From Pseudonocardiales bacterium (lineage in GTDB: Bacteria; Actinomycetota; Actinomycetes; Mycobacteriales; QHCD01): a stretch of 64,000 nt of DNA. The notes under the pieces are model-generated. The model saw nothing but the letters and a program-made list of their open reading frames with translations. It ran no database searches and had not been told where the DNA came from. The position numbers were made by a program, and so were the translations under genes. Of this stretch, positions 46,423 through 49,400 are shown one piece after another. Where the stretch lies: NCBI GenBank assembly GCA_003244255.1, contig QHCD01000011.1:46043-110042 (forward strand), written 5' to 3'. The number at the start of each line of letters is the position of its first letter. Positions within the stretch are counted from its first letter, which is position 1.

Positions 46423-49400
46423 CCTCGCCTCGGGTCCGGTCACCGAGACGTGCGGCACCCTTGGCGGCAACCGTCCGGCGCGCCAGTCACCGACCGCCGA
46501 GGCGATCAGACCGGCCAGGTAGTTCGCTTGGTGCTTGAGGAAGTAGTGCCCCGCCTTCGGGACCAACGCGAGCCCGACCTGCGGCGCGAAGGCCGCCCAC
46601 TCGGCGTACCGCTCGCGGTAGAGGTCGGTACCGCGGTCGCGTTCGCCGACGACGCACAGTGCCGGCGCCGTGAGCGTGCGCGGCTCGGCCCGGTTGAGCT
46701 CGCGGGTGAACCACGCCTGCGAGTTGTCGACATCGTGGCGCATGCTGTGCAGGATCGTGCGCTGGGCGGCCTCGTCGGCCATGTCCTCTTCCATCAGACC
46801 GCCCATGGAGCGCAGCAGATCGCGGCTCGCGCGGTCGGATGTGAAGCGGCTCTGCGGGAACTTCCGGTTGATCCACGACGCGAGCCGCCCAGGCAACGTC
46901 GCGGTGGGGAAGCTGCCCGCGACGATCAGGCCGACGACCTCGCGGCGGGCCGCTTCGAGCCGGAGCGCGAGTTCGGTTGCGAGCGCCGTGCCGACACAGT
47001 GGCCGTAGACCAGGATCGGGCCCTGGACGGTATCGCCCAGTTCGGCGAGGACCGCATCGGCGACGGCGTCGAGGGAGATGCGTTCCTCGTCCGGACGCGC
47101 GGGATCGTGGCCGGGCAGCTCGACGGCGACGACGGCCGTGCCGGGCATCGTGGCGGCGAGCTCGGTGGCCAGCGGCTGGTAGGCCACCGCGGCGCCGCCG
47201 CCGTACGGGACACAGACGACGGTGAGTGTGGTCGGCACGCCCTTCGGCGGTCCGGCCAGGCGGTAGAGCAACCCGGTCTGCGCGCTGCCGGCGCCGCCGT
47301 CGACGACCGCCGCGAGCTCGCCGACGGTGGGATGGGTGAACAGCTCGATGACCCGCAGCGACGGGTCAATCAGCCGCACGGCGCGGACCGCCGCGAACGA
47401 GTCGCCACCGAGTGCGAAGAAGTCGTCGTCGACGCCGATGCGCGGCACGTCGAGCACCCGCATCCATGCATCGACGACCCGCTGCTGACTCGGCGTGCTC
47501 GGGGGCACATAGTCGGCGGCCGCCGGCGCGGTGTCGGGTGCTGGCAGCGCGTGCCGGTCGACCTTGCCGTTCGGATTCAGCGGTAGTGCGTCGAGCACGG
47601 CGATCGACGCGGGCACCATGTAGTCGGGCAGCCGGTTGCGCAGCGCCCCCCGCACGGCCGTGACGTCCACAGTGGACGCGCCCGTTGCGGGGGTGATCCA
47701 CGCGGCGAGCTTGCGCTGGTGTGCTTCGCCTACGGGCAGTACGAAGGCCTCGCCGACACCCGGCAGCTCGCGCAGCGCGGTCGCCACCTCGCCGAGCTCA
47801 ACCCGGAAGCCGCGGACCTTCACCTGGTCGTCGACGCGACCGAGGAAACGCACCGCACCGCCGGAGGTGACGCGCACGCGGTCGCCGGTCCGGTAACACC
47901 GCCGGCCCGTGCCGAGCGGATCGAGTACGAATCGCTGCGCCGTCTCCTCGTCCCGCCCGAGGTAGCCGCGGGCCACGCTCGGCCCGCTGATCCACAGCTC
48001 CCCCGGCACGCTCGAAGGCACCATCCGGCCGCCCGCGTCCACGACGTAGCAGTCGACGTTCGGGAACGGCGTACCCAATGGCACCACGCCGTCACGTGCG
48101 AGCACCGGCACGTCGTCGATGCTGCACCCGAAGACGGCGACCGTCGTCTCGCTGGGCCCGTAGTGCACCTGAACGTCGATCCCGGGTGCGGCGGCCCGAA
48201 CGCGGTCGACGAGCGACCACGGACACGCCTCGCCGGCCAGCACCAGCGTGCGGCCCGGCAACACCGACGCCAGCTCGGCATGCGTCGCCAGCAGCTCCAG
48301 CTGGCTCGGCACCATCTTGATCACATCCAGGCGATGCGCCGCGACGTAGGCGGCGTAGGCAGCGGGGTCGGTTGCGACCTCGCGGTCTACCAGGTGCAGC
48401 GCCCCTCCGGTCGCGAGTGCACCCCAGACCATGGTCAGGCCGAGGTCGGCTGCGATGGTGGAGACCAGCGCGAAAGACCTTGGTACCTCGGCGATTCCGG
48501 CGCCAAACCGTTCAAGCACGGCCGGCAGATACTGCGCGAAGTTCCGGTGCTCGACCGCCACGCCCTTCGGCATGCCGGTGGATCCGGAGGTGAAGATCAC
48601 GTAGGCGAGCTGCGCCGGATCGACGACGACGTCGGGTGCGGTGTCGGTAACGGCCAGCGTCGCCGGGTCGTCGAGGACCAGCACCTCGCGGCCGGCGGCC
48701 AGCTTCGCCTGCTGCGCCGCCTCGGTGAGGACGACACGCGCGCCGGCGGCGGTCAGCATCGTGGCGATGCGGTCATCGGGATAGACGGGGTCGAGCGCCA
48801 CGTAGGCACCGCCCGCCTTGAGGACACCGACCAGCGCGACGGCGAGGTGCGTCGTGCGTTCGGCAAGGACGGCCACCGGCTCGTCGGCGCGGACGCCGAG
48901 GGCGAGCAGCCGGTGCGCCACCTGGTTCGCCCGGCGGTCGAGCTCGGCGTAGGTCAGGGTGCCGTCGGCCGCGACAACCGCTGTCGCGTCGGGGGTTTCG
49001 CGTGCCCACCGCTGCACCGGCGAGTGCATCAACGTGGCGGCGATGTCCCGCCGCGGCCCGCAGATCGTGGCGCCGGTAGTGGGCTCCAGCGTGATCGCAG
49101 CCATCGGTGCATCGAGGTCGGCCACCAGACCCGCAAGCAGCGCGCGGAACCAGTCCGCCATCCGGCGGATGGTCGACTCGTCGAAAACCTCGCTGCGGAA
49201 GGCCATACCGCCGCTGAACCGGACGCCGTCGTCGACCAGGCCGAGATCGAGGTCGAACTTCACCAGCGTGCTCGGTGGCTCGACCGGCGTGACGTCGACC
49301 CCGGTGAACCGAACCGAGCCGGAGCTCGTGTCCAGAACGTTCAAGGCCGCCTGGAAGATCGGCGTCGTCGTCAGCGACCGCTCGGGCTGCACGCGGTCGA

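Follow-up and report, generated by a model that had tools for sequence, protein, structure and literature searches.

Why does a non-ribosomal peptide synthetase (NRPS) of an uncultured actinomycete carry cysteine in place of the serine nucleophile of its thioesterase (TE) domain, and how would the finished peptide be released by such a domain? The question is raised by a stretch of 64,000 nucleotides (the window, as the whole stretch analysed is called here; GC 71%), which comes from a metagenome-assembled genome (MAG) labelled Mycobacteriales or Pseudonocardiales, and it concerns the protein NRPS2, encoded on the minus strand at 45058..53649. The overall best explanation, which we hold with good confidence, is that the TE is a cysteine-type (Cys-TE) release domain of a six-module assembly line made up of NRPS1 and NRPS2, and that it is fused to an exporter. 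The fused MFS transporter is a more distinctive feature of the protein than the cysteine itself.

The thioesterase and its cysteine

The public gene call for NRPS2 (L001, 1410-10001), which has matches to Thioesterase and MFS_3, gives a product of 2863 aa, and the protein is available under the accessions MGI9093182.1 (Mycobacteriales MAG) and PZS06003.1 (Pseudonocardiales MAG). The longest open reading frame (ORF) runs unbroken over 45058-53865 on the minus strand, and the public calls put the start at 53649. Pfam matches were found throughout in the same frame in the order Condensation, AMP-binding, PP-binding, Condensation, AMP-binding, PP-binding, Thioesterase and MFS_1/MFS_3, which is written here as C-A-T-C-A-T-TE-MFS (C, condensation; A, adenylation; T, carrier). 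The last carrier domain (47290..47490, minus) has the motif GGDSF, the commonest T-domain motif ahead of the TEs in the Cys-TE family, and its phosphopantetheinyl Ser codon lies at 47398-47400. The TE domain (46423..47274, minus) was matched by PF00975 with 73 bits over ORF residues 2215-2442, corresponding to 46540-47223 of the window and lying within the domain.

A previous sequence-only reading of this DNA had placed a cysteine, within GHCVG, at the position of the serine nucleophile, with its TGT codon at 46996-46998. The minus-strand translation around the elbow is GPILVYGHCVGTALATELA, with the translated elbow GPILVYGHCVGTALA and the nucleophile stretch ILVYGHCVG; the translation bears out the codon (46996..46998, minus), TGT being the reverse complement of ACA at this position of the window, and the residue is Cys2218 in the numbering of the 2863-aa protein. 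The possibility that the codon is really TCT or AGT was checked as well. The 38-mer around it is identical across five public contigs, namely two from NCBI MAG assemblies and three from Logan assemblies of separate SRA runs, and TGT is unchanged in all of them, so that a mistake in reads or assembly can in practice be dismissed. It could still be argued that faulty sequencing or assembly produced the Cys codon or the TE-MFS fusion, or that the gene is a pseudogene, and a MAG source raises such risks in general. Nothing was found in favour of this view, the frame of 2863 codons is intact, and the same Cys and the same fusion recur in more than 100 divergent relatives, isolates included, which together with the five identical assemblies makes its probability negligible. 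For the Cys codon by itself, sequencing error is ruled out by the five assemblies and by family conservation.

Among solved structures the best sequence match of the TE is ObiF1 (6n8e, E = 2e-35, 33-38% identity), in which GHCAG (Cys1146) aligns column for column with GHCVG. In this alignment the ObiF1 residues Cys1146, Asp1254 and His1284 (catalytic residue numbering of PMC6668435) correspond to Cys2218, to Asp2338 of GERD (codon GAC, 46636..46638, minus) and to His2368 of KAGHYF (codon CAC, 46546..46548, minus). The Asp stands after strand beta7, at position II in the terms of PMC11298585, and the Gly of IVAGS aligns with ObiF1 Gly1173, the site where ordinary NRPS thioesterases hold their Asp. 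The SulM TE (8w2c, 8w2d) is matched too, with its catalytic Cys in the same column. The Asp of GERDRGTD and the His of KAGHYF, which the sequence-only reading had offered as candidate triad partners, thus align with the ObiF1 triad, and both are invariant across an alignment of 16 TE-MFS proteins.

An AlphaFold2 model was built for the last 780 residues of NRPS2 with these 16 proteins as input alignment, and reached a mean pLDDT of 86.7 and a pTM of 0.86. In the model the Cys sits between a strand (129-134) and a helix (137-150), as in a classical nucleophile elbow, and residues 121-150 have block-mean pLDDT values of about 91-98; the Asp follows strand 247-252 (beta7) and the His follows strand 275-280 (beta8). 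When the model was searched against the PDB by Foldseek, ObiF1 took rank one and SulM ranks two to five, ahead of the type II TEs RedJ, BorB, RifR and YbtT; the Pfam order, the order of modelled strands and helices and the Foldseek matches all place an alpha/beta-hydrolase TE fold directly after the final carrier domain. The earlier parallel with ObiF and SulM therefore holds, since no solved structures come closer to the TE in sequence and fold than these two.

The type-II-like features of the domain suggest a further explanation, in which the TE is a built-in proofreading enzyme that clears mis-primed carriers while release takes place by other means. Such a role would fit the elbow of GHxxG form, the place of the Asp and the PDB matches next in rank (RifR, RedJ, BorB, YbtT and TesA), all of them type II. 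The domain sits, however, directly after the last carrier domain, NRPS2 has no other TE, R or terminal C domain for release, and ObiF1 and SulM are proven release domains with the same type-II-like features, so this explanation is very unlikely. By alignment and by the structure model, the TE is placed in the ObiF/SulM branch of type-II-like thioesterases with the predicted triad Cys2218-Asp2338-His2368. The claim that Cys stands in place of the Ser nucleophile is thus upheld by the ObiF1 and SulM alignment, the fold model and the five assemblies, and as judged from these comparisons Cys2218 is very probably the catalytic nucleophile.

Distribution of the cysteine in the family

The distribution of the Cys was surveyed by an exhaustive HMMER search with the TE alone against 1.84 billion cluster representatives, which returned 2795 matches at E <= 1e-3, 491 at E <= 1e-10 and 163 at E <= 1e-30. 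The 155 TE domains analysed, all 50%-identity representatives, consist of the best 150 of these matches and five from a word-indexed protein search. Cys occupies the nucleophile column in 149 domains and Ser in five, the one left being a frameshifted fragment; a C-terminal MFS domain homologous to that of the window protein is present in 106 of the 155. On clustering of 148 TE domains, the MFS-fused members, with the query among them, form one block and ObiF lies in a separate non-fused block, and Cys is found in both. The TE-MFS members occur in Actinomadura, Pseudonocardia, Sphaerisporangium, Streptomyces, Micromonospora, Nonomuraea, a Clostridium and spirochaete MAGs. The rarity of Cys-TEs stated in the sequence-only reading thus holds among characterised NRPSs and fails in this clade.

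The five members with Ser (GHSxG) are P0084, P0089, P0101, P0114 and P0135, of which P0101 and P0114 are MFS-fused. They are natural C-to-S variants which can be compared with their Cys neighbours.

These counts bear on the explanation that the TE is an ordinary hydrolytic or macrocyclising release domain in which the Cys was inherited and is chemically meaningless, so that only the fused exporter would be distinctive. The terminal residues of the family are diverse and include Gly, five members manage with Ser, two of them fused to the transporter, and oxoesters and thioesters react alike towards water (PMC11536411), all of which speaks for such a domain. Against it, Cys is 96% conserved in a clade whose members are down to 30-50% identity, although Ser is only one mutation away, and Ser fails to replace Cys in all three characterised Cys-TEs; we regard this explanation as rather unlikely. 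The persistence of Cys across 30-57% identity, with Ser a single base away, argues for selection for Cys, and on the aligned sequences the Cys appears as a selected trait of the whole TE-MFS clade, neither peculiar to this gene nor tied to SznE/SznF genes.

Many members of the clade carry the NCBI label 'non-ribosomal peptide synthetase/MFS transporter' and none of them has a product name. In the full-text literature, apart from subscription-only papers, no paper describing a bacterial NRPS TE-MFS fusion or its product was found.

The fused transporter and the proposed mechanism

The TE is not the C-terminal domain of NRPS2, a point which the sequence-only reading had missed. About 25 residues past the last TE helix the frame continues into a membrane domain of about 450 residues (45058..46422, minus; stop codon 45058-45060), an in-frame fusion which is supported by the continuous ORF, by the concordant public gene calls and by the NCBI name of such proteins. 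This domain is of the DHA3/EntS/Mef type, with matches to MFS_1 (PF07690, 103 bits), to MFS_3 'transmembrane secretion effector' (PF05977) and to TIGR00900 (DHA3, 178 bits), and weaker ones to EntS and Mef efflux models. In the structure model it is an all-helical bundle, and Foldseek matched this C-terminal half to the MFS transporters MdfA and SPNS2. A conserved MFS motif A is expected in a working transporter; in the 16 aligned TE-MFS proteins the motif (G-x3-D-R-x2-R-R, between TM2 and TM3) has G386, D390 and R395 invariant and R391 and R394 conserved at 90% or more. A basic stretch, RRNLRDF, stands immediately ahead of the first predicted membrane helix, which fits the positive-inside rule if the enzyme is cytoplasmic and attached to an MFS protein whose N-terminus lies on the same side. 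From these sequence features, export of the product by the fused MFS domain is somewhat favoured.

A lipid acylation role of the LplT-Aas kind was also considered for the MFS domain and is unlikely, the efflux models scoring 178 bits against 32 bits for the weak NCBIfam match to PRK08633.

By analogy with ObiF1 and SulM, the finished peptidyl chain would pass from the last carrier domain to the Cys thiol by thioester exchange and give an acyl-S-enzyme. This acyl-thioester may then be resolved by an intramolecular nucleophile which is ill served by an oxoester intermediate, or by water. The product would be freed where its own exporter opens to the cytoplasm and then pumped out, release at this place being suggested by the linker of about 25 residues which joins the TE to a 12-helix MFS domain of the DHA3/EntS type.

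The characterised Cys-TEs are ObiF (beta-lactone), SulM (beta-lactam) and BulbE (indole N-acylation), and in none of them can Ser replace Cys for the native reaction; the C-to-S variants lose cyclisation, and that of BulbE gives more hydrolysis product (PMC11536411). The rationale given is that a thioester acyl-enzyme is more reactive to poor nucleophiles and no more prone to hydrolysis (PMC11536411, PMC11298585).

Terminal residue and release chemistry

The residue delivered to the TE was predicted from the last adenylation domain of NRPS2 (Pfam; 47536..49014, minus), the ten-residue A-domain codes being extracted by motif anchoring. Its code is DLTKVAHVAK and that of the preceding domain is DSTKIGHVSK, and Lys278 and His322, a pair typical of domains that activate Asp, are present in both. 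The textbook Asp code is DLTKVGHIGK (Stachelhaus, 1999), and the last code agrees with it at 7 of 10 positions, Lys278 and His322 included. The Asp-like specificity noticed from the sequence alone therefore stands; a plain Asp would bring neither a beta-hydroxyl nor a beta-amine. Six related A-domain codes were looked for in the literature and no occurrence was found. In both A domains of NRPS2 (47536-52000, minus) the A4 motif reads ST(I/V)AAD(L/S)G in place of the SFD of most A domains.

Among the relatives the terminal code is Asx-like in about 40, Ser in about 20, Thr in about 7, Gly in about 5, and Orn-like or Dap-like in a few. Most of these residues carry a side-chain nucleophile, which fits a self-cyclising release, and the Gly cases do not fit. 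Uniform beta-lactone chemistry across the clade was rejected on account of the members with Gly or Orn-like terminal codes.

Several points weigh against a Cys-TE release domain working together with a fused exporter, and they are gathered here. No beta-hydroxylase is encoded in the 64-kb window, which ends inside NRPS1, and with an Asp-like A domain the four-membered-ring chemistry of ObiF and SulM is left with no visible substrate at this locus. The terminal residues being diverse and Gly among them, the conserved Cys is not accounted for by any single ring-forming reaction. The Cys is not absolutely required, since the Ser members exist and two of them are fused to the transporter. The coupling of release to export is drawn from the architecture alone, and no experiment on any TE-MFS protein was found in the literature.

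The same facts bear on the explanation that the TE is a true beta-lactone synthase of the ObiF type (or a beta-lactam synthase of the SulM type), whose hydroxylase, e.g. to beta-hydroxy-Asp, is encoded outside the window and whose product is exported at once. It is favoured by the position of ObiF1 and SulM as closest solved relatives with the same triad geometry, by the need for Cys in ring closure in both systems, by about 27 relatives that end in Ser or Thr, and by a relative in Actinomadura harenae which has a CmlA-like beta-hydroxylase beside its NRPS. It is opposed by the missing hydroxylase in the window and at the loci of the other inspected relatives, and by the relatives with Gly or Orn-like terminal codes, which cannot form four-membered rings; moreover the code of the last A domain is tighter than the canonical Asp code (Ala301 and Ala331 for Gly) and does not suggest a bulkier beta-hydroxy substrate. 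Such a synthase is quite unlikely here, and the unusual release that had been implied for this protein does not find support, its terminal residue being Asx-like with no beta-hydroxylase in sight.

For a Cys-TE release domain fused to an exporter, two general modes of release remain to be compared. Cyclisation through a poor nucleophile or to a strained or reactive ring has a chance slightly under even and is about level with plain hydrolysis, and a beta-lactone in particular is improbable unless a hydroxylase is encoded further upstream.

The upstream continuation of NRPS1 was searched for beyond the window. A wobble-tolerant DNA pattern gave no match in metagenome contigs, and a protein-guided scan gave only relatives at 28-37% identity.

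The neighbourhoods of five TE-MFS relatives were inspected and no accessory gene common to them was found. The TE of Actinomadura harenae is the nearest relative of the window TE (57% identity, terminal code DLLKVAHVAK). Directly upstream of its NRPS (L012 3448-5031, GCA_042657805.1) a CmlA-like diiron beta-hydroxylase, composed of CmlA_N and a metallo-beta-lactamase fold, is encoded. This cluster is the best candidate for beta-lactone chemistry. At another locus (L006, ENA ERZ23872315) a small NRPS cluster ends in C-A-T-TE(Cys)-MFS with the terminal code DLTKVAHVAK, and directly downstream of it, at 15646-16464, a Bfd-type ferredoxin and a bacterioferritin are encoded. These neighbours hint at iron-related metabolites as the products of some members, in keeping with the EntS-like character of the exporter domain.

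The operon and its neighbouring genes

The genes follow each other on the minus strand in the order NRPS1, NRPS2, PRMT-like methyltransferase, SznF homologue and small Rieske-type protein. NRPS1 (53672..64000) is cut by the window end; it has 3776 aa by public call and the domain order A-T-C-A-T-C-A-T-C-A-T, and lies 22 nt from NRPS2. The PRMT-like (SznE-like) methyltransferase gene (43976..45058) has a start which overlaps the stop codon of NRPS2, the SznF homologue gene lies at 42567..43979, and the small Rieske-type protein gene (42082..42570) overlaps its end. Given the 22-nt gap and the stop/start overlaps of the four genes from NRPS2 on, the genes from NRPS1 to the Rieske-type protein form one operon. 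In the window annotation no separate exporter gene was found beside the operon on the visible side.

The first C domain of NRPS1 has the active-site motif ADHVAIDG (near N1 residue 429; 62700-62720, minus) and not HHxxxDG. It is probably active, since the motif retains the second, catalytic His.

On the opposite strand beside the operon (39539-42196, plus) an ECF sigma factor, a zf-HC2 anti-sigma factor and an MsrP/MsrQ-like pair, i.e. a molybdopterin oxidoreductase and a cytochrome b561, are encoded. These genes may have no relation to the cluster or may be an oxidative-stress response unit adjoining it. The remaining genes of the window look housekeeping.

The SznF homologue matches SznF (6m9r) with E = 7e-177 and keeps intact diiron (HDO) ligands, E215, H225, E281, H311, D315 and H318 being identical to SznF in the alignment. 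Its cupin motif 1 (about 42740-42760, minus) has changed from THCHDGDELCH in SznF to SDQYDTDTLLH, with the loss of two of the three iron-binding His and of the Glu. The same SDQYDTDTLLH occurs in the sole other NRPS-linked SznF homologue (L007), and HxH...E is kept in four szn-type homologues with no NRPS (L008-L011). The three-His iron site of the cupin domain is needed for the N-N bond (PMC10849742). As the cupin His and Glu are lost while the diiron ligands are kept, the protein, as far as its residues tell, may stop at an N-hydroxylated N-methyl-arginine with no N-N bond.

Five SznF loci from species-representative genomes were compared to see how far Cys-TEs and SznF go together, as the sequence-only reading had suggested surveying. 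A TE-MFS NRPS stands next to the methyltransferase, SznF and Rieske genes in one of the five, that of the closest Mycobacteriales MAG, whose TE is 81% identical; the pairing is not seen in the other four, where the trio occurs with no NRPS (Sphaerisporangium with two loci, Actinokineospora and Longispora). No SznF was found beside TE-MFS relatives at the inspected loci. The idea that a Cys-TE goes with SznF was therefore rejected, and the two are rather independent modules which were combined in this lineage. At each of the five related loci (L007-L011), szn-type included, the SznF homologue is likewise followed by the small Rieske-type protein, which may be a dedicated electron donor to the diiron domain.

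Significance of the locus

The ObiF/SulM branch is far larger than its studied examples: the Cys is retained in at least 149 families at 50% identity, and among the 155 nearest representatives about two thirds have an EntS/DHA3-type exporter fused to them. No characterised member was found for the Cys-TE clade defined by this exporter fusion, although NCBI already has a name for such proteins. The GHCxG elbow together with an in-frame MFS domain can be used as a handle for genome mining. The clade also provides a system for two questions, whether release and export can be physically coupled and why a thioester acyl-enzyme is selected. For the operon itself a hexapeptide whose last two residues are acidic is predicted, alongside an arginine methyltransferase and an SznF-like N-oxygenase with a degenerate nitrosating site.

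A more far-reaching proposal is that the Cys-TE-MFS unit is a 'release and expel' device, which would take the peptide onto a cysteine placed at the cytoplasmic entrance of a dedicated exporter, turn it by way of the more reactive thioester into a labile electrophile (after hydroxylation a beta-lactone, or else an anhydride or imide ring derived from terminal Asx) and expel it before it reacts inside the cell. This proposal is unlikely on present evidence. If it were true, more than 100 sequence families would stand for largely undiscovered reactive and short-lived nonribosomal peptides which standard isolation has missed, and the peptide of this locus would in addition carry N-hydroxylated methyl-arginine from an SznF homologue lacking the N-N-forming site.

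Comparison with known systems

Type II proofreading TEs (RifR, RedJ, BorB and YbtT) share the fold, the GHxxG-type elbow and the Asp position with the window TE and are its next-best PDB matches. They are free-standing editing enzymes with a Ser nucleophile, whereas the window TE is built into the synthetase and has Cys. BulbE (bulbiferamide, PMC11536411) shares a Cys nucleophile which Ser cannot replace, and speaks for the view that poor nucleophiles are served by a thioester acyl-enzyme. It has its Asp at the canonical site after beta6, however, which marks a different TE lineage, and it is absent from the matches found here.

SulM (PDB 8w2c and 8w2d, PMC11298585) has a Cys nucleophile and a position-II Asp in common with the window TE and is the second-best fold match; the SulM and ObiF TEs are reported to group with type II TEs (PMC11298585). 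SulM differs in its identity of only about 22%, in its own Q-C-N elbow, in a positively charged pocket for N-sulfonated Dap and in having no MFS fusion. ObiF1 (PDB 6n8e, Kreitler et al. 2019, PMC6668435) shares the GHCxG elbow, the triad, the Asp after beta7 and the Gly at the usual Asp site, and it is likewise a release domain after the last carrier domain. In ObiF an MbtH-like domain comes after the TE, and the P. fluorescens protein also has a terminal aryl-acid adenylation domain, whereas here a transporter follows; its substrate ends in a beta-hydroxy amino acid (extracted A code DAWGCGHINK), while the code of the window is Asp-like. ObiF falls in the separate, non-fused cluster of the family, and its beta-lactone formation is proven.

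With the streptozotocin-type SznE/SznF pathway the locus shares the arginine methyltransferase and an SznF with intact diiron site, and it differs by the loss of the three-His cupin site. The pattern of the SznF homologue is also opposite to that of the chalkophomycin-type group (PMC10849742). Fusions of the LplT-Aas type are a precedent for an MFS domain joined to an acyltransferase/acyl-ACP synthetase at the membrane, but their domain order and partner enzyme differ from those of the window protein; one such gene is present in locus L006.

The closest likeness is with the proteins which NCBI names 'non-ribosomal peptide synthetase/MFS transporter', such as WP_122194818.1 of Actinomadura harenae and WP_232668530.1 of Pseudonocardia sp. 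TRM90224. They have the same T-TE(Cys)-MFS arrangement, with TEs that are 50-57% identical and homologous MFS domains (E = 1e-100 or better). The name is an annotation label, and upstream modules, terminal residues and neighbour genes vary among these relatives; it is to this group that the window protein belongs.

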